Sequence record: OZ335961.1
Strand: one strand, 5' to 3'
DNA length: 64,000 nucleotides
DNA from: a phage
Position numbers and translations under genes: made by a program. The notes under the pieces are model-generated. The model ran no database searches and was not told the DNA's origin. It saw only the letters and a list, made by a program, of their open reading frames with translations. Shown here in pieces: positions 6,622 to 62,370 of the stretch. Position 1 is the stretch's first letter, and each line of letters opens with the position of its first letter.

Positions 6622-6894
6622 TCATAGTTCAATCTCAGCGATTTTCATTTCATTACTATTAATAGCCGCTTTAAGACTATCTGAAAGAATTACATCCCAG
6701 TGGTCATTCATATGACCATTAACTAAGCGTGTAATTTCTTCGGGAGTTGAAAAATAAGGCGTATCAGACTCCCAGTGTGATAATCCCAAACGAGTATAAA
6801 TCATGCCTTCATCATCGCTAGAATATTCAACTGACACAAACTCATCAGTTATTTTATGTTTAGCGTAATAAAATTTAAATTTCATTTTACTCAA
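6622..6894 (-). CDS. hypothetical protein (90 aa)
   Basis: ORF. Confidence 0.55.
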   Translation of the reverse strand: MSKMKFKFYYAKHKITDEFVSVEYSSDDEGMIYTRLGLSHWESDTPYFSTPEEITRLVNGHMNDHWDVILSDSLKAAINSNEMKIAEIEL

Positions 6895-7097
6895 TAATCC
6901 GCTAAAAGATCGACGATTGTATCACGAAGACATTTATTCGCAATACGTTTAAGAGCAATTTCAGTTTCTGGAGCATTTTGAATAATCATCGAATTCAATT
7001 CAGCCTCAGCAAACTGAAGTTCTTTAACTAATTCAGCTTTATATTTTCCTTGCCCTTTCTTAGCTTTTGCTCGTTTTAATTCAGCCGTAGTAAACAT
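6891..7097 (-). CDS. hypothetical protein (68 aa)
   Basis: true ATG after conserved leader GGAGAATAAA; track extension translates the promoter. Confidence 0.5.
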   Translation of the reverse strand: MFTTAELKRAKAKKGQGKYKAELVKELQFAEAELNSMIIQNAPETEIALKRIANKCLRDTIVDLLADY

Positions 7098-7131
7098 TTT
7101 ATTCTCCAAATCCGTATCAGTTGATAGTTGT

Positions 7132-7161
7132 ATAGTACCACAGTCCTTGTGGTATGTAAAC
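7132..7161 (-). promoter_or_regulatory. T4-type early promoter with spacer dyad
   Basis: TTTACA -17- TGGTACTAT; spacer has CCACAAGGACTGTGG dyad. Confidence 0.7.
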
Positions 7162-7177
7162 CGTTTTGTGAAAATTT

Positions 7178-7735
7178 TTAAATGGAAAGATACCATCCGT
7201 TGTAGTTGCTTTTTCTTACAACCTTACGAAGGTCTTCTCTATCACCGATGAACTTCGGAGTGTACTGGATGACACCTGGATGAATTTCTTTAGTGTTGAA
7301 TATAATTATACAGTCAGCGACCTGATGATTCAGAATGGGCCCTAGATTTATTCCAGAACCATATGGATACTCTCCGCTGCATCCTGTTGTTACAGAAATC
7401 CAACGTGAGTCAGTTTGATGTGTCTTAACTTCTACACGAATCCCGCAGTATCTTGGATGCGCCAATACATCCCATGCGTATGTATACGGGTCATTAACAT
7501 CCTCTTGGCCTTTGTTAACATACCCGCTTAGCCAATCTGCTACAAAAAACTCTGCGTACACCGCGATACGACATCTTTCGATAACTTCTGCTTTATCCTG
7601 GTTCGGGTTTTGTTTTAAAGAGTATCTTGTTGTATCAGCAATTTTGACCTTCATTTCACTAGTCAAGTCACTGTTCGATAGGGTAAATGTCGGAATCTGA
7701 AATAGTCTCTGTAAACCCGGATTCGTTTTCTGCAT
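7178..7735 (-). CDS. denB: endonuclease IV (DenB)
   Basis: 185 aa; size and position between ndd and rIIB. Confidence 0.75.
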   Translation of the reverse strand: MQKTNPGLQRLFQIPTFTLSNSDLTSEMKVKIADTTRYSLKQNPNQDKAEVIERCRIAVYAEFFVADWLSGYVNKGQEDVNDPYTYAWDVLAHPRYCGIRVEVKTHQTDSRWISVTTGCSGEYPYGSGINLGPILNHQVADCIIIFNTKEIHPGVIQYTPKFIGDREDLRKVVRKSNYNGWYLSI

Positions 7736-7997: not shown

Positions 7998-8016
7998 AAT
8001 TTTTCCTTAAAACAAA

Positions 8017-8031
8017 AGGGCCGAAGCCCCT
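8017..8031 (-). terminator. UUCG-tetraloop hairpin followed by U-rich tract
   Basis: minus strand GGGGCUUCGGCCC then UUUUGUUUU. Confidence 0.55.
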
Positions 8032-8035
8032 TATT

Positions 8036-8230
8036 TTATTTGAATTGTGCAATTCTTTTTTCTAAACAATCTGCGTAAGATTTCATTGAGATGAACTGTG
8101 AAAGCAGTAATTCTTGCTCAACTTCATTAATCGTTAGAAACTTTGTGCTTTCTAAAAATTTGCTCAGTGCATTAATTTTGAGCATTAATTGATCGTATTC
8201 TTCTTTTACTCGTGCTTGATAACCTAACAT
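8036..8230 (-). CDS. hypothetical protein (64 aa)
   Basis: ORF downstream of rIIB. Confidence 0.5.
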   Translation of the reverse strand: MLGYQARVKEEYDQLMLKINALSKFLESTKFLTINEVEQELLLSQFISMKSYADCLEKRIAQFK

Positions 8231-8246
8231 AATTTTCCTTAGTTAA

Positions 8247-8258
8247 GGGCCGAAGCCC
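8247..8258 (-). other. UUCG-tetraloop RNA hairpin
   Basis: gggccgaagccc at rIIB stop. Confidence 0.5.
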
Positions 8259-9197
8259 TTATTTAAATTGTTCAGTAACGTCTTCAACTACTTCGTATTG
8301 GCAAGTACGCATTTTAGCATCGTTGTAATCAATCGGAATTGATACTACATCACGCGGATGCACTTTAACTTTTACAACTCGGCTGGTTGAACTGCCAAAG
8401 TGACGAATATAAGATTTAGAACATACATGCAGACCGCGAGAACAAGTTTGTGTATCATCGTCATTCACACGAGTACGTGGCATTTTAACTACTTTACCAG
8501 GACTGTTATCAAAAGTATTTGAATGGCAGTCAAAGTAATTACTGCGAACTACTTTCCAAGCATAGAAGTAGCCGTCTTCCGTAATTTCAATATCGTTTGC
8601 TACCAAGAAATCAAAGAGTCGAGATACCGCCTTTTGGCTCGGGTTTTCTAACAGATTTTCCAAGAACGGAAAATAAAATTCAAAGTTTTCGCCTTTTTCC
8701 ATCGAATCGAGAATACGATCAACTAAACCAGACCGCAATTCAATATTTTGATAGAACAAGCTTCCACCTTCAATTCGAACATCACCAGAAATATATTTTT
8801 CAACAGCGCGACGAACGTTAATTTTTTGCGCTGCTTCTTCCAATTTATCTGCAACAAGCAGATTAAGAATTTCCTGGAAGTTTGAATGAGTATTAGGAGT
8901 TGCGTTATAAGTTACACCGTCAACAGTAATTGAAATGAATTTTTTAGATGCATTCCAAATAATGTCAGATTTAGCAACTGGAGCAATAGCTGTATCGCTA
9001 TTAACTTTAACAGTAATGTCACCGCTAATAGTAACTTTGGAACGCTCAGCTTCTTCAGCATTTTTCAAAACACGACGGATTGTGTCAACCGATACACCTT
9101 GCCAATCAGCCAATTCCTGTTGGGTGTAATTACCACTTAAATACAGTTTAACAATTTCAGCTTGTTCGTTTTTGGTCAGGCATTTAATATTGTACAT
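8259..9197 (-). CDS. rIIB: rIIB membrane-associated protein
   Basis: 312 aa; recognised, adjacent to rIIA. Confidence 0.9.
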   Translation of the reverse strand: MYNIKCLTKNEQAEIVKLYLSGNYTQQELADWQGVSVDTIRRVLKNAEEAERSKVTISGDITVKVNSDTAIAPVAKSDIIWNASKKFISITVDGVTYNATPNTHSNFQEILNLLVADKLEEAAQKINVRRAVEKYISGDVRIEGGSLFYQNIELRSGLVDRILDSMEKGENFEFYFPFLENLLENPSQKAVSRLFDFLVANDIEITEDGYFYAWKVVRSNYFDCHSNTFDNSPGKVVKMPRTRVNDDDTQTCSRGLHVCSKSYIRHFGSSTSRVVKVKVHPRDVVSIPIDYNDAKMRTCQYEVVEDVTEQFK

Positions 9198-52749: not shown

Positions 52750-53070
52750 TTATAGCGTAATCCATTCTCGTATTGTCTGAGTTACTACACGTTCACGGGG
52801 CTCAACTAGTTCAACAGTCGGAACTGCATAATACCAGTCAGAATGGTAAGAACCTGAGCGAGATTCATTTACAGACACATGAACGTTATGTTTTGGACTA
52901 AAATAAACGCACTGCCGATATTGGCATTTGCCATCTTGTACCCAATCTTCTATTTCGATAGGTTTAAGATAATCCGAAAAATCGAAATCATAATTTTCTG
53001 AAAATGCATCATGGTCTTCGATGATTTCACTCAGAACTGCATCAACATCTAATTTATTTTCAATAGTCAT
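52750..53070 (-). CDS. hypothetical protein (106 aa)
   Basis: ORF. Confidence 0.5.
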   Translation of the reverse strand: MTIENKLDVDAVLSEIIEDHDAFSENYDFDFSDYLKPIEIEDWVQDGKCQYRQCVYFSPKHNVHVSVNESRSGSYHSDWYYAVPTVELVEPRERVVTQTIREWITL

Positions 53071-53821: not shown

Positions 53822-54079
53822 TTATTCCTTAATTCCTAGTACTTGTTTAAAAGTCTCGTCGTAATCAAGACTTTGGCCCGTTTGTTCTTTATGTTTGTAT
53901 ATAATATCACTTACTTCTGATAGCATATTTTTATATGAACGAGTTAAAGCAGATTTAAGCACGCTGTATCTATCAGGAAATTTACCATGTTCATTATAAT
54001 ACGCTATTGCTAATTCACGGACTGCCTTTTCAGCAATCTCCATATATTCTTTACGCTTGGTCATTTTCTTCTCGGTCAA
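53822..54079 (-). CDS. hypothetical protein (85 aa)
   Basis: ORF. Confidence 0.5.
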
Positions 54080-54368
54080 ATCGGTGTTTGCAATGACGAC
54101 ATTTATAACGAAGATTACTAGTCTGCCAATGGACTAATTGAACCTGTTCAGTACCGCATTCAGGACAATTAGGAACGTTTTTAGAAGCCCTTTCGCGACG
54201 TTCAACCATAGCCATAATGGCATCCCAAGCTGGAGGTTTAAAGTCTAAATCATCACAATCATGAATCTTTCCACGCATTTCCAGATCGTCTTCTTCACCA
54301 TCCATAATAATTTTAATTAGACTGGAATTACTTGAAGCTGCGATATCTTCTAATAGACGCTTTTTCAT
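54051..54368 (-). CDS. hypothetical zinc-ribbon protein (105 aa)
   Basis: CPECG...CRHCKH. Confidence 0.5.
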
Positions 54369-55294
54369 TTTAATACCTCAATAGCATTACGTAAACCATT
54401 TGCTTTTGCATTAAGAGCTTTTAACAATTTGGTGTGTTCGTCAATCTGGGCTTCAACTTCAATTAAGCGAGCATTGAGATATTCACGTTCTTCGCTCAAG
54501 TTATCAATCTTTTCTACTTTAGGCTCTTTTACAACTGTCTTATATGTATTAGGGTTCTTCAGTTTAATTAGAATGCGTGAACTGTATAACATTGAACCAT
54601 TATCTTCGGTTTCGTCATACATTTCTACTACGTCCATGATTTTTAACATCATGCGGAGTTTATAAGACAACGAACGAATAGTTTTGTTGTGCTTATTAAT
54701 TTCTCTAGAGTTCATGGTGCCGAGATTACGTGAGTAATAATAAGGAACCTGGATATTAATTAACACTGATGAACCACCTGGCTTATGTGTTACTTCATCA
54801 GCAATAACCCAGTCCTTAACATGAACTGTATTTGTACGGTCATCACCAGCGGTAAATAGTTTGCGAGCATGCTTAAAAAGCATATTCACTTGGGTATTGA
54901 ATTGACAAGCAAATTTATCAGCAAATTTAGTTTCAGGAATGGTAGATAACCAATCAGCCAAATGGGTCTTTTTAACATCGTTAACAATAGTAAATTCAAC
55001 CAAATCGGTTATAGATGTCGTAGATTTAATGAAGCTCGGCTTCATAAAGTTTTTAATGTTATCGCGAGCTACAGTAGAAGATAACATACGAGAACGTTTA
55101 AACCATTCAAGCAAATTGCCTAACGAATGAGAATAAGCGTTTTGAGTATCTTTACAGATATGATTTTCCTGACCAACATATTGAAGGAAATCACGAAGAA
55201 TATTATTGATTACTGCTCTGTGTCCGATCTGATAATTACGGTGTTTAGTAATAAGACTATCAAAATAATCAATATAATGTTTACGAGTTTTCAT
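54365..55294 (-). CDS. coiled-coil protein, paralogue family member A (309 aa)
   Basis: shares A(S/R)(K/R)L motif and C-terminal coiled coil with next three ORFs. Confidence 0.55.
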   Translation of the reverse strand: MKTRKHYIDYFDSLITKHRNYQIGHRAVINNILRDFLQYVGQENHICKDTQNAYSHSLGNLLEWFKRSRMLSSTVARDNIKNFMKPSFIKSTTSITDLVEFTIVNDVKKTHLADWLSTIPETKFADKFACQFNTQVNMLFKHARKLFTAGDDRTNTVHVKDWVIADEVTHKPGGSSVLINIQVPYYYSRNLGTMNSREINKHNKTIRSLSYKLRMMLKIMDVVEMYDETEDNGSMLYSSRILIKLKNPNTYKTVVKEPKVEKIDNLSEEREYLNARLIEVEAQIDEHTKLLKALNAKANGLRNAIEVLK

Positions 55295-55346
55295 GTTCTT
55301 CTCACTTGGTTAATGATTTATACTCCGAGCCATCCTTGGCTTTAAA

Positions 55347-56348
55347 TTACTTAATTAACTGTAAAGCTTGTTCCAAACGGTCAAGACGATTAACAGATTC
55401 TTCCCAAATCCTTTTAGCCTGCTCATAATCTTTCTGCGCTTTATTAGAAATTTCTAGAGCTTCTTTATAAGCTTTTTCTAATGCAATAACTTCTGGACGA
55501 ATTTCTACCGGTTCAGGTGAATCATCAAGACATTCCATTAGTTCCTCAAGGGTAGTTTCTTCTTTAGGAGTATTCACAATTTCATCACATTTTTGTTGGT
55601 AAATTTCTTTATCAGTCGGTGAGTACGCACACTTTACTTCACGGAGACTAACTACAATTTTATATCCTTCCCAACCGCATATATTCTTAAAAGGATAAGT
55701 ATAAATATTTTCTACTGTTTCCATACAAAGTAATGCGGTCTCTAACTGACGAGTTATATCGCTAGCAATTGAGAAAAATTTATTAATGTTCTTTTGATTA
55801 GCTTCTGGTGTAAAAAATTCATAATTCACAAAAATAGCTGCTTTATTTTTATCAAGCTCATATTCTTTTATGATAATCATATCAGAAGCCCAAGGATGAA
55901 TTTGACGATAATCACCATAGCATAATTTAGAAGCTGATTTTAGAAGTTGCTTCTTGAAAAGTCTGAAATTACTAATCCAACGACGAGTAAAAATATTCTC
56001 AGGGTCTTCTTTATTATTAAGATGATAAGAATTAACATCACCGAACCAATTATATCCTACTACATCTTTAGTTCGTTTAATTTCTTTCCCAAATTTACTA
56101 AGAATATCTCTGTTGACTAAGTATGAAAGAAGACGAGAACCTTTAAAGGTTTCCTTAATATCATCTTTATATTCGCAACTAGAAATTTTATGAACTTCAT
56201 GAATAAATTTGCCGGAAGAAACAATACTTGCATCAGTATTGTTGAGCCACTGATTGATAATAGAAAGAACACTATTCTGACTAGACATAGATTTAACTTT
56301 ATCATCAATAACGCTATTGAATGATTTGATATATTCGTTACGAGTCAT
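55347..56348 (-). CDS. coiled-coil protein, paralogue family member B (333 aa)
   Basis: ATG MTRNEYIKSF after GGAG; track extension overlaps promoter. Confidence 0.55.
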   Translation of the reverse strand: MTRNEYIKSFNSVIDDKVKSMSSQNSVLSIINQWLNNTDASIVSSGKFIHEVHKISSCEYKDDIKETFKGSRLLSYLVNRDILSKFGKEIKRTKDVVGYNWFGDVNSYHLNNKEDPENIFTRRWISNFRLFKKQLLKSASKLCYGDYRQIHPWASDMIIIKEYELDKNKAAIFVNYEFFTPEANQKNINKFFSIASDITRQLETALLCMETVENIYTYPFKNICGWEGYKIVVSLREVKCAYSPTDKEIYQQKCDEIVNTPKEETTLEELMECLDDSPEPVEIRPEVIALEKAYKEALEISNKAQKDYEQAKRIWEESVNRLDRLEQALQLIK

Positions 56349-56376
56349 ATTAATCTCCTCAGTAGAAAGTAAGAAC

Positions 56377-56406
56377 ATTATACCACATCCTTGTGGCGAA
56401 GTAAAC
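56377..56406 (-). promoter_or_regulatory. T4-type early promoter
   Basis: TTTACT -17- TGGTATAAT; spacer dyad CCACAAGGATGTGG. Confidence 0.7.
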
Positions 56407-57434
56407 TAGTTTAGTGCATTTAGTGCATTGCTCAGTTTAGAACGTTGCTTCGTAAGATTTTTGACTTTTTCTTGAGCTTTTTCTAGCATCTTTTCAGCTT
56501 CTAACACTTCATTAGTTGCTTTAACGAGTTCATCATCTACTGCCTTGATAGACTTCTCAATCGCATCCGCGTGCCATTTTTCAACAGGTTTAAGACTCGG
56601 ATTTTCAACAGGAAGAAAATTCACTTTATTGAATTTCCATGCATCCTCATTACCTGAGCTATACATCCAAAATTTAGGATCGTTTGATGAGCAATTGGAT
56701 AAATTTAAGTTATAGTTATCTTGTACTTCCTGTTTTTTCTCTTGCGGGATTTCGTCCTTTCTCAAAAAATCATATTTAAATGAAACGATCATATCAAGTT
56801 CATATGTTGTTGTGTCTAATTTAAATCGCTCAAAACGGGGTAAAATCTTAGACTGAACAGCGGCAACAACATCCATATACTTAAATGCTTCTGTCAACTG
56901 CGATTTAAGGCATTCGCAAATTGAAAGAGAATTTTTTGTATTAGGTTTAAAGCTAATTCGTGCAGTTCTGTTATTTTCTTTTAATGGTCTTACTTCCATC
57001 TGAAGAGTATAACCATCAAATTTCAGGTTCTTTAAATTAATGTCAGAACCTTTTAATCGACTAGCCGTCGACAAAATTTGCTTTAATTGTTTACGGAATA
57101 GAGCAATAAATCTCCATTCAATACGATAATGATTTGGATTGAAAAATCCAGATGATAAATCGACCTTACTTTGACCAACGCCTTGAACAAATAGAGGATT
57201 TTTATAATCAATAGTTTTACAGAAATCGGTGAGCTGCTCACGAGCCGTCATTTGTGTAATATACCCCGCTTTACTAAAATTACTCACCCATTCACTGCTA
57301 TTTAGATATTTAAAGTGATGAATAGCACGATTAACTTTATCAGGGTCTAAATTATTTTCACACAAAAATGTCATAACATTACGAGTATCGCTGGCAATAC
57401 GAACCATATCTTCAATTTGAGAACGAGTTTTCAT
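56406..57434 (-). CDS. coiled-coil protein, paralogue family member C (342 aa)
   Basis: paralogue by shared motifs. Confidence 0.55.
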   Translation of the reverse strand: MKTRSQIEDMVRIASDTRNVMTFLCENNLDPDKVNRAIHHFKYLNSSEWVSNFSKAGYITQMTAREQLTDFCKTIDYKNPLFVQGVGQSKVDLSSGFFNPNHYRIEWRFIALFRKQLKQILSTASRLKGSDINLKNLKFDGYTLQMEVRPLKENNRTARISFKPNTKNSLSICECLKSQLTEAFKYMDVVAAVQSKILPRFERFKLDTTTYELDMIVSFKYDFLRKDEIPQEKKQEVQDNYNLNLSNCSSNDPKFWMYSSGNEDAWKFNKVNFLPVENPSLKPVEKWHADAIEKSIKAVDDELVKATNEVLEAEKMLEKAQEKVKNLTKQRSKLSNALNALN

Positions 57435-57442
57435 GGTGTTCC

Positions 57443-58354
57443 TTAAGATTTAAGTAAATCAACAATTTTAATTAACTTTTCACGCTCGGATTTAGCTTTA
57501 CTACTCAATCCAGATAGTCTGAAAATTTCATCATCATATTGTTGAATAGAAATATTCAGCTCTTCAATCTGTTTATTAAAATAATCAATTTGTTCAGAAT
57601 GTTTTTCGTTACTACGAACTGGTACAGGTTTCGTAGGCAATGTAGTTGAACTGGATTCATCCGGGCGGTAAATTAAAATACAACTTGAACCAATAGGGCA
57701 TTTTGCACCAGATGAATATTCTAATGTTCCAGATTCTTTTAAAACTTCAAAAGCTAAACAGAGATGATGCCCCATATTAATATAATCTGTAGAGCGAGCT
57801 CTGATGTAATAATCATCGCCACGAATACTAAATTTAAAGCATTTAAGGTCTTCTGTATTATTGGTCTTAAAAATCATTTGTTTATCTAGACCTTTAGCTA
57901 ATCGAGCGCCCAATGCTAATAATCGTCGTTGATTTTCCCACAAATCCGCAATCATTTGATCGAATGATAATTTCGGCATTAGTCGACCGTAAAGGTCATA
58001 TCCTTTATTATAATTACGAAGGATTTCACTCGCGTTAATACGAGACAATGCTCCAATTTTATTAAGGGCTTTCATAATGCGATTAGATAAACTCATTCCA
58101 GACCCGTTTGTTCGCTGCAAATGTTTTTCTAATCCAAATCCAATATCAACTTTAAACTTATCTAAAATTTCTGCATGAACATCTCTGTCAATAACATTCA
58201 AATCCAAAGTTGGGTTAAATCTATGAAAAAATTTATCTGGCTCTCCACGGCGAAATACAGTCCATTCATTCATCATTTTTTTATTAACTAAAGATTTAAT
58301 TACTGCATTGACATTATTAATTACTACTGACATATTTTCCTCACTCAATTTCAA
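57443..58354 (-). CDS. coiled-coil protein, paralogue family member D (303 aa)
   Basis: paralogue by shared motifs. Confidence 0.55.
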   Translation of the reverse strand: MKLSEENMSVVINNVNAVIKSLVNKKMMNEWTVFRRGEPDKFFHRFNPTLDLNVIDRDVHAEILDKFKVDIGFGLEKHLQRTNGSGMSLSNRIMKALNKIGALSRINASEILRNYNKGYDLYGRLMPKLSFDQMIADLWENQRRLLALGARLAKGLDKQMIFKTNNTEDLKCFKFSIRGDDYYIRARSTDYINMGHHLCLAFEVLKESGTLEYSSGAKCPIGSSCILIYRPDESSSTTLPTKPVPVRSNEKHSEQIDYFNKQIEELNISIQQYDDEIFRLSGLSSKAKSEREKLIKIVDLLKS

Positions 58355-58748
58355 TTTTACTAAATATACAGAATAAGATGGAACAGACTATATAAGCACC
58401 ACACACAGATTGAACTAATACCATTCCAAAGAACCAAACAATATTATCAAACAATGTCTGTTTTACGTCGAAAGGACGTAAACTTACAGTAATATTATCA
58501 CCTTTTTCTATTGAAGAATACATCTCTGGGGAAATATATTCACTAAATCTATAACCGTCTTTGAGTTCATATACGGCAATAAACGATAAACTAGACCCTT
58601 TTCCTTGCGTTCCTGTAATGGTATTAACTACAGTAACATCATAATCTTTATAATGCATATAATCATTAATTGCGTAATAACCATATGCAACTACTACACA
58701 TAAACAACATATCAATAAATTCAATCTTCTAATTATCAACCGTTTCAT
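58341..58748 (-). CDS. membrane protein (135 aa)
   Basis: N- and C-terminal hydrophobic helices. Confidence 0.5.
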   Translation of the reverse strand: MKRLIIRRLNLLICCLCVVVAYGYYAINDYMHYKDYDVTVVNTITGTQGKGSSLSFIAVYELKDGYRFSEYISPEMYSSIEKGDNITVSLRPFDVKQTLFDNIVWFFGMVLVQSVCGAYIVCSILFCIFSKIEIE

Positions 58749-58803
58749 AATAATCTCAATTAAAAGGGCTTAGAACCATTATACCATCCTTGGTATAAAG
58801 CGG

Positions 58804-59331
58804 TTATGCGAGTACCGTCTTTAACCGTTCTTCAAACTTCCGAAGAGTATTTTGGCGTTCAGCTCTTTGCTTTTTGTAAGTTTCAATACGCTCTGAAATG
58901 AGAGTGTATCGTTCATTTACTGATTCTTTCATAAAATCAGGAATTTCACGAGAAGCTTTAATCTCGTCAAATTTATCAATAACAGCTTGCTCTTCAGCAA
59001 TTAAGTTATCATACATTAAAATATCTTTCTTGATGAACTCAATATCTTCTTGAGTTACACGAGATAATTTAGATGCTTTATCCTTTTTGTACTGTTCATT
59101 AGTATCACGAGACCAGTGTAATGTACGATTTTTATTCGTATTTTTGTAAATTTCTACAATACCAATCTCATCAATAATAACGATCCAATTCCAACGGGAT
59201 TTGTAAATTTGTCCTCCATCAACAGTGATTTCACCTCCGATTGAGATGTCGTTAAAGAACTTGCTTTGTGCTTCAGATTTAAATTTACCATCGTTGTAAT
59301 TTACCAAGTTGAAAATATCTTTAGCGTTCAT
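58804..59331 (-). CDS. hypothetical protein (175 aa)
   Basis: ORF with GGAGG SD. Confidence 0.55.
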   Translation of the reverse strand: MNAKDIFNLVNYNDGKFKSEAQSKFFNDISIGGEITVDGGQIYKSRWNWIVIIDEIGIVEIYKNTNKNRTLHWSRDTNEQYKKDKASKLSRVTQEDIEFIKKDILMYDNLIAEEQAVIDKFDEIKASREIPDFMKESVNERYTLISERIETYKKQRAERQNTLRKFEERLKTVLA

Positions 59332-60832: not shown

Positions 60833-61096
60833 TTATTTTAATGTTTGCCAAATTTTTACTGCTTCGCGACGAGATACTTCTACAGCTCCAAGTTCTACGG
60901 CTTTTTGGCGTCGGCGAGCATGTAAGTCATAATGTTTAATGCGTTTATCTTGAAACCAAGAACGTTTCATTCCTATTGCTTCTGCCATTTTATGAAGCTC
61001 TTCAATATCTCCATCAGTGAACATATGACAATTTTTAGTTGGATGACCGCGAAGTTTCCATCCATGATTCATTAAAACATCTACGTAAACTGTCAT
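60833..61096 (-). CDS. DUF4031-like protein (87 aa)
   Basis: pattern YVD...H....HM..D...ELH..A..IG; family assignment from memory. Confidence 0.5.
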   Translation of the reverse strand: MTVYVDVLMNHGWKLRGHPTKNCHMFTDGDIEELHKMAEAIGMKRSWFQDKRIKHYDLHARRRQKAVELGAVEVSRREAVKIWQTLK

Positions 61097-61242
61097 TGAT
61101 TCTGCTCCAAATATGTTTCTATAATTTTCTGAGCGAGATAAACTGCGTTATCTTCAGTTGCATCTTCTAAGAAATTTTCAAAATAAGCTGAAATTTCTTC
61201 TGTGTCAATCAACTTTTTTACTTCAATTAACGTAGTTTTCAT
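61093..61242 (-). CDS. small hypothetical protein (49 aa)
   Basis: hand-read; ATG after conserved leader; ATGA overlap with next gene. Confidence 0.4.
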   Translation of the reverse strand: MKTTLIEVKKLIDTEEISAYFENFLEDATEDNAVYLAQKIIETYLEQNQ

Positions 61243-61276
61243 TTTATTCCCCAAATCCGTATCAGTTGATAGTTGT

Positions 61277-61306
61277 ATAGTACCATAAAGCTTTATGCTT
61301 GTAAAC
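61277..61306 (-). promoter_or_regulatory. T4-type early promoter
   Basis: TTTACA -17- TACTAT. Confidence 0.7.
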
Positions 61307-61330
61307 CGTTTTGTGAAAAAATTTTGAAAT

Positions 61331-61354
61331 AAAAAAGGGAGCCCGAAGGCTCCC
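61331..61354 (-). terminator. intrinsic terminator
   Basis: hairpin gggagcc-cgaa-ggctccc followed on minus strand by U6. Confidence 0.7.
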
Positions 61355-61356
61355 TA

Positions 61357-62370
61357 TCATTTATAATAACTTCGATGGTTTTCAAGATAAATCCTCTCAA
61401 GGAAGTCATCCCAGAAACCCATGTCTACTTTTTGCTGCATACCGTTCTTAGAAGCTTCAATGGATGCTGCTTCTACTTGATCGACCACATCTTCCAAAAA
61501 CTCTTGAACAGTTTTAAATGGATGTTTACCCAACTTCACGTCGAGAATAAATGGAGCGTCTTGAAGTGGATAGACTAAGTCACCAGTTTTGTAAATTTCC
61601 AATAGTTGGAGTCCACCACGGCAAGCATGACTCAGAGCTTTCCAGTCAATGCCCTCATTCGCTTCAGCCTTACGAGCACGTTCGCCGTATTCAGCATCAA
61701 GTTTATTCAAAGATTGCTTAAGCTCGATAAGAGAAAGCGTTGTTTGATATTTACGACCCAACACAGTGTAGAACGTTTGTGGGCCTGTTTTCTCATGATT
61801 ATGGAATACCCATTCACAGAATTCGTTCTCTGGAAGACGATGCTTAATATCTTCTACCTTAGTTCGACGTTGCTTAATGGAACCGTCTTCTTGATAATCA
61901 ACCCATTGGTCAGGGATTTGACTAACTACTTTCAATACATCACGTAATGCGGCCAAACGAGAACCCTTGACGCCGTATTTAGAAGCTTGCTTGCGAACAT
62001 ATCCTAAATAGGATTTCATGTTAGTCGTATAAAAACGAGAACGATTGTCTTGAATAAACTTCCATACATCAGGCAAATCAGATTTAACCACTAACTCAGG
62101 TGGAGTGTGGAGCATATCCAATGCTACAGTTTCACCATCTGCTGCTAATTTAAAGAAATATTTAAGACTGTATAGTTCATGGTCAATATCATCTTTAGTG
62201 TTTTTAGATGATGTGTTGTTAGTGTTTTTACTCATATGCTCTTTAACATTTCCGATAAGAATATCGCGAGCACGAGGAACAAAAATTTCTTTAAAATCTA
62301 CATCAGATTCTGGAGTAGAAGTTCCATAAAGATGACTACCAAAATAGCTTTTCATTACTGTTTTCATCAT
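61357..62370 (-). CDS. Pol-beta-superfamily nucleotidyltransferase-like protein (337 aa)
   Basis: N-terminal GSHLYGT-x5-SDVD signature. Confidence 0.55.
   Translation of the reverse strand: MMKTVMKSYFGSHLYGTSTPESDVDFKEIFVPRARDILIGNVKEHMSKNTNNTSSKNTKDDIDHELYSLKYFFKLAADGETVALDMLHTPPELVVKSDLPDVWKFIQDNRSRFYTTNMKSYLGYVRKQASKYGVKGSRLAALRDVLKVVSQIPDQWVDYQEDGSIKQRRTKVEDIKHRLPENEFCEWVFHNHEKTGPQTFYTVLGRKYQTTLSLIELKQSLNKLDAEYGERARKAEANEGIDWKALSHACRGGLQLLEIYKTGDLVYPLQDAPFILDVKLGKHPFKTVQEFLEDVVDQVEAASIEASKNGMQQKVDMGFWDDFLERIYLENHRSYYK

Follow-up and report, generated by a model that had tools for sequence, protein, structure and literature searches.

Distant tandem paralogues nrdC.3 to nrdC.6 of a T4-like phage as candidate inhibitors of host immune proteins

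Four similarly sized open reading frames (ORFs) follow one another on the minus strand of a 64,000-nucleotide stretch of phage DNA (OZ335961.1; the window), raising the questions of whether they descend from a single gene and what their products might do. A preliminary description of the sequence read them as serially duplicated, diverged coiled-coil proteins, in a pattern associated with host-range, exclusion or anti-defence functions. We examined gene identity, homology, predicted structure and natural variation at this locus.

Gene identities and the early-transcribed block

The four ORFs (309, 343, 342, and 303 aa) occupy exactly 54365 to 58354, as previously described. Judged by sequence, they are, in the same order, the T4-type early genes nrdC.3, nrdC.4, nrdC.5, and nrdC.6 of a Tequatrovirus (T4-like) phage. 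The DNA of the region is 95–97% identical to that of hundreds of Tequatrovirus genomes, and the gene order, with the array between nrdC.2 and nrdC.7, is that of ime09, T4T, and Bas37. The gene names used here were taken from the ime09 and T4T annotations.

57443..58333, minus strand: nrdC.6, 296 aa from the ATG at 58333 (M8), the start annotated in T4; Pfam PF26899 (Phage_T4_Y05B), phrog_2257
56406..57434, minus strand: nrdC.5, 342 aa; Pfam DUF7235 (PF23882), phrog_2351
55347..56348, minus strand: nrdC.4, 333 aa from the ATG at 56348 (M11); Pfam PF26897 (Phage_T4_Y04OP), phrog_1435
54365..55294, minus strand: nrdC.3, 309 aa; phrog_1435

The mechanically called ORFs of nrdC.6 (303 aa, TTG start, reaching 58354) and nrdC.4 (343 aa, reaching 56378) likely contain the true starts, M8 and M11, internally; M11 of nrdC.4 is invariant among the homologues and corresponds to the start annotated in T4. 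Identity to the T4T proteins is 97.6% for nrdC.6, 93% for nrdC.5, 90% for nrdC.4, and 60% for nrdC.3. For nrdC.5, the 93% identity to T4 NrdC.5 (Y05A_BPT4) extends over the full 342 aa at the same genomic position, and the protein matches Pfam DUF7235 with an E-value of 1.3e-125.

A promoter-like sequence lies within the array, immediately before the MTRNEY start codon of nrdC.4.

56377..56405, minus strand: putative sigma-70-like promoter with an extended -10 element (TTTACT, 17 nt spacer, TATAAT, TG upstream), a consensus match only

Similar TGGTATAAT-type elements lie upstream of nrdC.7 and nrdC.8. Together with the match upstream of nrdC.4, they are consistent with early transcription of the region.

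nrdC.3 to nrdC.6 are homologous

Pairwise alignment bore out the expected similarity beyond the coiled coil for nrdC.3 and nrdC.4 (BLASTP E 1e-6), and for no pair that includes nrdC.5 or nrdC.6. Plain pairwise comparison, a check put forward with the preliminary description, misses these two proteins, which would have failed on the refuting condition given there; more sensitive methods were required. Profile-profile comparison using hhalign linked nrdC.3 with nrdC.4 (98.2% probability) and nrdC.4 with nrdC.5 (93.9%, E 1.6e-7 over 247 columns, after removal of a chimeric contaminant). A superprofile of the nrdC.3, nrdC.4, and nrdC.5 families matched nrdC.6 at 96.2% (E 2.5e-9). When nrdC.6 was combined with the Karamvirus family, the match rose to 97.6% (E 2.6e-12) and was colinear, with the helix that bears the shared central motif included. 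Intermediate sequences of other T4-like phages had been added to the profiles that linked nrdC.6. Direct comparison of the nrdC.6 profile with each single family (nrdC.3, nrdC.4, or nrdC.5) gave no significant match, and a merged nrdC.3/4/5 HMM in plain HMMER did not detect nrdC.6, so that profile-profile comparison with intermediates was needed for this member.

An early profile match between nrdC.3 and nrdC.5 proved to be an artefact of P0056, a naturally occurring nrdC.5::nrdC.3 chimera that had been included in the nrdC.5 set. All profile comparisons were repeated without this sequence.

An alternative to common descent is that four unrelated ORFs of comparable size lie side by side, and that their resemblance reflects chance and low-complexity coiled coil. 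In its favour, BLASTP returned nothing for 4/6 pairs, with nrdC.3 and nrdC.4 the only significant one; the E-values for nrdC.3/nrdC.6 and nrdC.4/nrdC.5 are only 10–36; PHROGs and Pfam hold three separate families; and one early profile match was the chimera artefact. However, the cleaned alignments are significant and colinear across 135–256 columns of the globular part, well outside the coiled coil, while 31 unrelated ORFs of the window, used as controls, reached a profile probability of at most 2.2%. The families are also bridged by the intermediate sequences P0235 and P0239, and the predicted folds match (see below). We consider the chance explanation extremely improbable.

These results show that nrdC.3, nrdC.4, nrdC.5, and nrdC.6 are homologous, old tandem paralogues. 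Identity between paralogues is 15–27% (about 15–25% in comparisons with nrdC.5), and similarity declines with distance along the array, in the order nrdC.3~nrdC.4, nrdC.4~nrdC.5, and nrdC.6. The closest paralogue of nrdC.3 is nrdC.4, and nrdC.6, the first gene in the direction of transcription, is the most diverged. An exhaustive representative search returned only 19 clusters, and thus no large hidden family or cellular homologue; scans of IMG/VR that started from the Klebsiella, Enterobacter, and Acinetobacter proteins scarcely widened this diversity. The superfamily is found only in T4-like phages (Straboviridae). Neighbouring proteins of 230–270 aa in Klebsiella, Enterobacter, and Acinetobacter phages were considered and rejected as members.

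Copy number differs by genus, being four in Tequatrovirus, three in both Mosigvirus and a second diverged group of T4-like phages, and one in Jiaodavirus and Karamvirus (one genome each). With one superfamily recovered by profile-profile comparison and predicted fold, and with copy number varying among genera, the proposal of serial duplication and divergence is supported. In the second diverged group (loci L006–L015), the nrdC.5-like gene is overlapped at its start by a 71-aa ORF, which was rejected as a frameshifted N-terminus; this ORF encodes an unrelated small protein that looks like two hydrophobic, transmembrane-like segments.

Predicted architecture and the search for enzymatic features

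The central motif noted earlier, LxxxA(S/R)(K/R)L.xG(D/S), occurs once per protein at an equivalent position in all four; nrdC.6 carries only a relaxed form, with GARL instead of A[SR][KR]L.

54842..54880, minus strand: central motif of nrdC.3, LFKHARKLFTAGD (aa 139)
55911..55946, minus strand: central motif of nrdC.4, LLKSASKLCYGD (aa 145)
57045..57077, minus strand: central motif of nrdC.5, ILSTASRLKGS (aa 120)
57887..57922, minus strand: central motif of nrdC.6, LLALGARLAKGL (aa 145), relaxed form

A relaxed motif expression gave four matches in the 31,553 aa of six-frame ORFs of the window, all in these proteins; as it was composed after the motifs were known, this count attests to their rarity but does not amount to an independent test.

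The C-terminal coiled coils of the preliminary description are likewise supported in every member. Over the last 49 aa of each protein, 71–93% of the residues at heptad a/d positions are L, I, V, M, or A (p <= 0.011 by shuffling in every case), and AlphaFold2 predicts long terminal helices. The same heptad test on the neighbouring nrdC.8 gave 43% at a/d (p = 0.39), that is, no heptad pattern.

54368..54514, minus strand: coiled coil of nrdC.3, last 49 aa; 86% hydrophobic a/d, reached in 0/2000 shuffles
55350..55496, minus strand: coiled coil of nrdC.4, last 49 aa; 71% a/d, p = 0.011; AlphaFold2 helix 295–342
56409..56555, minus strand: coiled coil of nrdC.5, last 49 aa; 93% a/d, reached in 0/2000 shuffles
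57446..57592, minus strand: coiled coil of nrdC.6, last 49 aa; 71% a/d, p = 0.0025; AlphaFold2 helices 249–281 and 285–296

We modelled nrdC.4 (pLDDT 81.6) and nrdC.6 (pLDDT 74.7) using AlphaFold2. The two models share a fold and domain order, with an identical succession of secondary-structure elements. Foldseek matched the nrdC.4 model to a model of JS10 NrdC.6 over its full length (E 1.6e-5), and both window models retrieved a common set of uncharacterised proteins from T4-like phages of Acinetobacter, Pectobacterium, Enterobacter, and Serratia. The TM-scores were modest (0.40–0.49) because the domain orientations differ. Each protein is predicted to consist of a helical domain at the N-terminus, an alpha/beta domain in the centre, a flexible linker, and, as its fourth part, the C-terminal heptad coiled coil. 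The central domain opens with the conserved motif-bearing helix; in the nrdC.4 model, the motif lies in the helix pair H129–140/H142–152, before the central beta-hairpin.

This central domain gave weak scores against phage tail terminators (lambda gpU/DUF3168-like fold), at 4–15% identity. Nitroreductase-fold proteins and other alpha/beta sandwiches score equally, and, unlike tail terminators, the nrdC proteins are early, non-structural, and equipped with additional N- and C-terminal domains. We rejected membership of the tail terminators and regard the similarity as a generic fold resemblance.

Pfam and NCBIfam contained no family above the curated cut-off except the family's own DUF entry, PADLOC gave no match, and PDB sequence searches returned marginal or compositional matches only. 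The superfamily-invariant residues are mostly hydrophobic. As far as sequence can indicate, the family shows no sign of an enzyme. That the proteins are enzymatic or metabolic rather than binders, for example restoring or protecting NAD+ as in NARP pathways, seems improbable to us.

Variation, neighbours, and a candidate anti-defence role

Within Tequatrovirus, nrdC.1 and nrdC.8–nrdC.10 are at least 98% conserved; the corresponding values are 61–98% for nrdC.3, 88–96% for nrdC.4, 90–96% for nrdC.5, and 93–98% for nrdC.6. Two allele classes of nrdC.3 exist, differing in the central domain only. The window carries the non-T4 class, and its divergence from T4 NrdC.3 is confined to that domain. 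Frameshifted, deleted, and chimeric arrays occur naturally. The variability of nrdC.3–nrdC.5 and the natural disruption of arrays may point to an arms race and to genes that the phage can do without.

The suggestion of a host-range or anti-defence role is borne out by experiment for T4 nrdC.5: plasmid-expressed T4 nrdC.5 restores plating of a deletion phage on dsr1 cells (Srikant 2022, PMC9391042). For Dsr1, a bacterial SIR2 NADase, the trigger is the major capsid protein of the phage, which acts through a TPR sensor (PMC12803255). The experiment concerned the T4 allele, 93% identical to that of the window, and one Dsr1, from ECOR17 (PMC9391042), and the effect on Dsr1 could be indirect. For nrdC.3, nrdC.4, and nrdC.6, which in the window are distant paralogues of T4 NrdC.5 with the same domain order, motif, and coiled coil, we infer such a role; their paralogy with an anti-Dsr1 gene makes them good candidate inhibitors of further defences.

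The neighbourhood contains further anti-defence genes. The neighbour gp49.2 is a published inhibitor of OLD, nrdC.1 is a published inhibitor of Septu, and bas37_0203, the nrdC.8 orthologue, of Druantia III. The nrdC.8 protein of the window is 99.4% identical to Bas37_0203. Like the array, these genes belong to the early-transcribed, dispensable block between gene 49 and nrdC.10, and their products are small proteins without known domains, each disabling one host defence. Unlike the array, they are single-copy, encode 80–175 aa, and are unrelated in sequence (no profile matches). The accessible part of the HIDEN-SEQ screen of T4 and Bas37 reports nrdC.1 and the nrdC.8 orthologue and does not mention nrdC.3, nrdC.4, or nrdC.6, so that this part holds no reported phenotype for the three genes against the defences tested there.

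The reading that we favour, at a probability of roughly 0.6, is that the locus is an old paralogue array in which each member is a non-enzymatic, coiled-coil-oligomerised inhibitor of a host immune protein, duplication having broadened the range. Each paralogue would be produced early in infection and act stoichiometrically, oligomerising through its C-terminal coiled coil. Its fast-evolving central domain would bind a particular host immune protein and keep it inactive, before the late-expressed trigger of that protein appears. Duplication and divergence would then have widened the range of defences, or defence variants, that are disarmed. The direct binding mode is suggested by the lack of enzymatic features and by early expression. 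A functional analogy only is offered by DSAD1 of phage SPbeta, a DSR2 inhibitor. According to two reports (PMC11087589, PMC11263360), DSAD1 blocks a SIR2 NADase by binding rather than by catalysis, and the C-terminal sensor of DSR2 recognises a late structural protein. We found no sequence or fold relationship between DSAD1 and NrdC.5, for which binding is putative, and the targets differ (DSR2 and tail tube for DSAD1; Dsr1 and capsid protein for NrdC.5).

A more specific version, which we regard as doubtful, would make the array a diversified set of proteins that block sensors. The target of NrdC.5 would be the TPR sensor with which Dsr1 detects the capsid protein, and the variable central domains of nrdC.3, nrdC.4, and nrdC.6 would adapt these paralogues to other clades of this widespread sensor, found in Avs7 and in fusions to a nuclease, kinase, or NADase, or alternatively to other pattern-recognition defences. 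The conserved coiled coils would permit homo- or hetero-oligomeric, multi-headed inhibitors, and the weakly tail-terminator-like central fold could represent virion-protein mimicry, acting as a decoy.

It is also conceivable, if rather unlikely, that the proteins are paralogues of which only nrdC.5 acts in counter-defence, while the others serve host takeover or regulation, for example by binding host housekeeping proteins. Experimental support is limited to nrdC.5, the low identity between paralogues leaves room for diverged functions, and nrdC.6 is markedly better conserved in Tequatrovirus than nrdC.3–nrdC.5, a less arms-race-like pattern. Against this stand the location of the array inside a run of demonstrated anti-defence genes, the dispensability of the genes, which are lost or frameshifted in nature, the cassette-like replacement of the nrdC.3 central domain between alleles, and the genus-dependent copy number.

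The four genes and the anti-Dsr1 function of nrdC.5 are already known. The unification of the four families appears to be new, and with it the resulting prediction for nrdC.3, nrdC.4, and nrdC.6. T4 is the reference lytic phage, yet these three genes are annotated as hypothetical; their paralogy to an anti-Dsr1 gene makes them, and their Straboviridae relatives, testable counter-defence candidates. It also suggests roles for the parts of the proteins, with the hypervariable central domain providing specificity and the N-terminal domain and coiled coil forming a scaffold. The locus also illustrates, from nature, the way in which tandem duplication, allele exchange, and loss may extend the anti-immune repertoire of a phage, which is relevant to host-range prediction for therapeutic T4-like phages.

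Gene identities and layout

Judged from its sequence, the window is a segment of a Tequatrovirus (T4-like) genome. Positions 54000-58800 match 689 phage records; of these, 465 align with the greater part of the query at 80-97% identity. The four genes of the array were named from the ime09 and T4T annotations:

54365-55294, minus strand, nrdC.3
55347-56378, minus strand, nrdC.4 (mechanical ORF)
56406-57434, minus strand, nrdC.5
57443-58354, minus strand, nrdC.6 (mechanical ORF)

The array is transcribed towards lower coordinates, starting with nrdC.6 and continuing through nrdC.5 and nrdC.4 to nrdC.3. Upstream of it lie nrdC.7 and nrdC.8, and on the downstream side nrdC.2, nrdC.1, and nrdC. 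Compared with their T4 counterparts, the proteins are 97.6% (nrdC.6), 93.0% (nrdC.5), 90.1% (nrdC.4), and only 60.3% (nrdC.3) identical. Both mechanical ORFs are probably slightly overlong. The true start of nrdC.4 is most likely M11 (MTRNEY, ATG at 56348), which all homologues conserve and which the T4 annotation also uses; upstream of it are a Shine-Dalgarno sequence and an extended -10 promoter-like site. That of nrdC.6 is most likely M8 (ATG at 58333), matching the T4 annotation.

A nrdC.6 homologue of Shigella phage Sf25 (P0122, 378 aa) is annotated about 80 residues beyond the usual length; its start may have been mis-called, its N-terminus may be extended, or the upstream gene may be fused to it. 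The nrdC.2 gene (54051-54368, minus strand), whose start overlaps the nrdC.3 end by 4 nt, encodes a small zinc-ribbon protein with weak matches to many zinc-ribbon Pfam families, and varies to an unusual degree within Tequatrovirus (63-96% identity).

Evidence for a common origin

The central motif, LxxxA(S/R)(K/R)L.xG(D/S), occurs once in each of the four proteins (residues 139, 145, 120, and 145), with a relaxed variant (LGARL) in nrdC.6. Among all six-frame ORFs of the window, a relaxed regular expression matched these four sites only, a post hoc test that indicates the rarity of the motif. In the last 49 residues, L/I/V/M/A occupy 86%, 71%, 93%, and 71% of the heptad a/d positions (shuffle p ≤ 0.011 in each protein), compared with 43% (p = 0.39) in the neighbouring control nrdC.8, and the AlphaFold2 models of nrdC.4 and nrdC.6 end in helices of ~45 residues. 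The motif counts, heptad statistics, and predicted helices therefore indicate that the preliminary description of a shared motif and C-terminal coiled coils was accurate.

Pairwise similarity was recovered in part: BLASTP detected nrdC.3 and nrdC.4 (27% over 226 aa, E about 1e-6), and the remaining pairs went undetected. PHROGs places nrdC.3 and nrdC.4 in phrog_1435, with nrdC.5 and nrdC.6 in separate families, and Pfam is likewise split into Phage_T4_Y04OP (PF26897), DUF7235 (PF23882), and Phage_T4_Y05B (PF26899). We compared profiles built from collected homologues and from loci of more distant T4-like phages. Early profile matches between nrdC.3 and nrdC.5 were spurious, arising from a chimeric protein (P0056) inside the automatically collected nrdC.5 set; the hhalign comparisons below were made without it.

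Profile-profile comparisons (probability; E-value; columns where recorded). The 3/4/5 superprofile is the joint profile of the nrdC.3, nrdC.4, and nrdC.5 families.
hhalign, nrdC.3 and nrdC.4: 98.2%; 4.5e-14; 211
hhalign, nrdC.4 and nrdC.5: 93.9%; 1.6e-7; 247
hhalign, nrdC.3 and nrdC.5: 50%; 1.7e-4; 232, colinear
Karamvirus family and nrdC.6: 93.2%; 2.8e-7
Karamvirus family and 3/4/5 superprofile: 96.3%; 1.9e-9
nrdC.6 and 3/4/5 superprofile: 96.2%; 2.5e-9
nrdC.6 + Karamvirus and 3/4/5 superprofile: 97.6%; 2.6e-12

Against each single family, nrdC.6 gave no significant hhalign match (1.5-6.6%, E 0.0055-0.035). When 1.84 billion representatives were searched exhaustively in HMMER, the merged 3/4/5 profile matched only 19 clusters, including the intermediates P0235, which matches the nrdC.3, nrdC.4, and nrdC.5 profiles, and P0239. 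The nrdC.6 link was built from these intermediates and the single-copy relatives of Klebsiella phage PKO111 and Enterobacter phage Entb_43. The PKO111 member, a 324-aa ORF (L018:13154-14128) unannotated in RefSeq (NC_031095, about 61059-62033), is linked to P0239 (95.6%) and the nrdC.4 profile (72%). In the alignment of nrdC.6 + Karamvirus with the 3/4/5 superprofile, 193 columns are colinear, and the two groups pair at the SR-LS/ALSR helix as well as at the motif helix. The 31 unrelated window ORFs (≥ 180 aa) used as controls reached at most 2.2% probability against these profiles.

The predicted structures independently agree with the profile homology. The nrdC.4 and nrdC.6 models (pLDDT 81.6 and 74.7) share one order of elements: the helical N-domain is followed by a helix pair at ~130-152, next come two beta-hairpins with a long helix between them, and a disordered linker then leads into the long terminal helix. 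In Foldseek searches of viral models, nrdC.4 matched JS10 NrdC.6 over its full length (E 1.6e-5), and the two models had in common their matches to uncharacterised proteins of 300-370 aa from T4-like phages of Acinetobacter, Pectobacterium, Enterobacter, and Serratia. Similarity decays along the array with distance, as expected for serial tandem duplication. The proposed serial duplication and divergence is thus supported by profile links for all four and by the agreeing predicted folds of nrdC.4 and nrdC.6; we put the probability that all four are paralogues at about 0.9, and the duplications are ancient.

Copy number, allelic variation, and loss

Tequatrovirus carries four copies. A second diverged T4-like coliphage group (loci L006-L015), which protein matches to phages such as JS10 suggest to be Dhakavirus-type, has three (in the order 6, 5-like, 4) and lacks both nrdC.3 and nrdC.7. 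Mosigvirus mogra has three (6-like, 5-like, 3-like), Jiaodavirus and Karamvirus have one each (a single genome per genus), and Acinetobacter phage Konradin has one weak candidate. At ~6850-7190 of each L006-L015 locus, a conserved 67-71-aa ORF with two hydrophobic, transmembrane-like segments (by eye) lies between nrdC.6 and the nrdC.5-like gene, whose start it overlaps; Tequatrovirus instead encodes a membrane protein of 135 aa, nrdC.7, on the upstream side of nrdC.6.

Across Tequatrovirus, conservation is ≥ 98% for nrdC.1 and nrdC.8-nrdC.10 but lower in the array, with identities of 61-98% for nrdC.3, 88-96% for nrdC.4, 90-96% for nrdC.5, and 93-98% for nrdC.6. The nrdC.3 gene falls into two allele classes that are 60% identical overall (window 54365-55294 versus T4T L032:7557-8483): 84-92% in the N-domain, 80-100% in the coiled coil, and only 32-72% in residues 76-275. 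This pattern suggests that the central domain has been exchanged as a cassette.

The array is visibly dispensable in nature: nrdC.4 is frameshifted in one genome and lost from another lineage, in which remnants of nrdC.5 and nrdC.3 are fused. In the former (L008:8001-9033, IMGVR_UViG_2974742932_000001), nrdC.4 consists of two overlapping ORFs (8001-8582 and 8557-9033), apparently a frameshift pseudogene or a sequencing error. In the latter (L033:4570-5900, ENA ERZ28629209 scaffold_6, 167 kb; also L034), nrdC.4 is deleted, and P0056, a natural chimera, joins residues 146-274 of nrdC.5 to residues 129-309 of nrdC.3, preceded by a 115-aa ORF at the position of the nrdC.5 N-terminus. This nrdC.4-less array is present on four contigs.

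Anti-defence context and proposed role

A T4 deletion clone was unable to infect ECOR17 owing to the SIR2-domain defence protein Dsr1, and K-12 carrying dsr1 could be infected again once nrdC.5, an early gene, was expressed (Srikant et al., eLife 2022, PMC9391042). According to a 2026 preprint (PMC12803255), Dsr1 has as its sensor a TPR domain that Avs7 also carries, and the trigger is the major capsid protein of the phage. The suggested anti-defence role thus holds for nrdC.5 through its T4 orthologue and is extrapolated to the others: the window's nrdC.5 allele is likely to counteract Dsr1, and nrdC.3, nrdC.4, and nrdC.6 stand an even chance of being counter-defence factors.

The neighbours include further inhibitors. 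gp49.2 inhibits OLD (PMC13096335), as reported from T6; the 106-aa ORF at 52750-53070 (minus strand) corresponds to it by size and position only. According to one preprint (bioRxiv 10.1101/2025.11.20.689424), nrdC.1 inhibits Septu and bas37_0203 inhibits Druantia III. Window nrdC.1 (53822-54079, minus strand) is 98.8% identical to T4 nrdC.1. Window nrdC.8 (58804-59331, minus strand) is 99.4% identical to bas37_0203, which occupies the nrdC.8 position in the Bas37 genome; it is unrelated to the four paralogues and lacks the heptad pattern. The gp49.2-position ORF, nrdC.1, nrdC.5, and nrdC.8 make the block an anti-defence island.

We propose that the four proteins would be made early in infection and oligomerise via the C-terminal coiled coil, and that the variable central domain would bind an immune protein of the host and shut it down before the late trigger builds up. 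Direct binding is a tentative part of this proposal, somewhat less likely than not; the action of phage SPbeta DSAD1 on DSR2 is alike in logic only. Duplication, allele exchange, and loss would then fit the repertoire to the defences that each phage lineage meets.

The genes themselves, the nrdC.5 phenotype, and the Pfam union of nrdC.3 with nrdC.4 were already known. A literature search of limited coverage found no paper whose main text names nrdC.3 or nrdC.6 and none describing the four as one family; such a description may exist. Our analysis unifies three database families with single-copy relatives in other Straboviridae, and thereby makes a concrete prediction about three T4 genes that are still uncharacterised.
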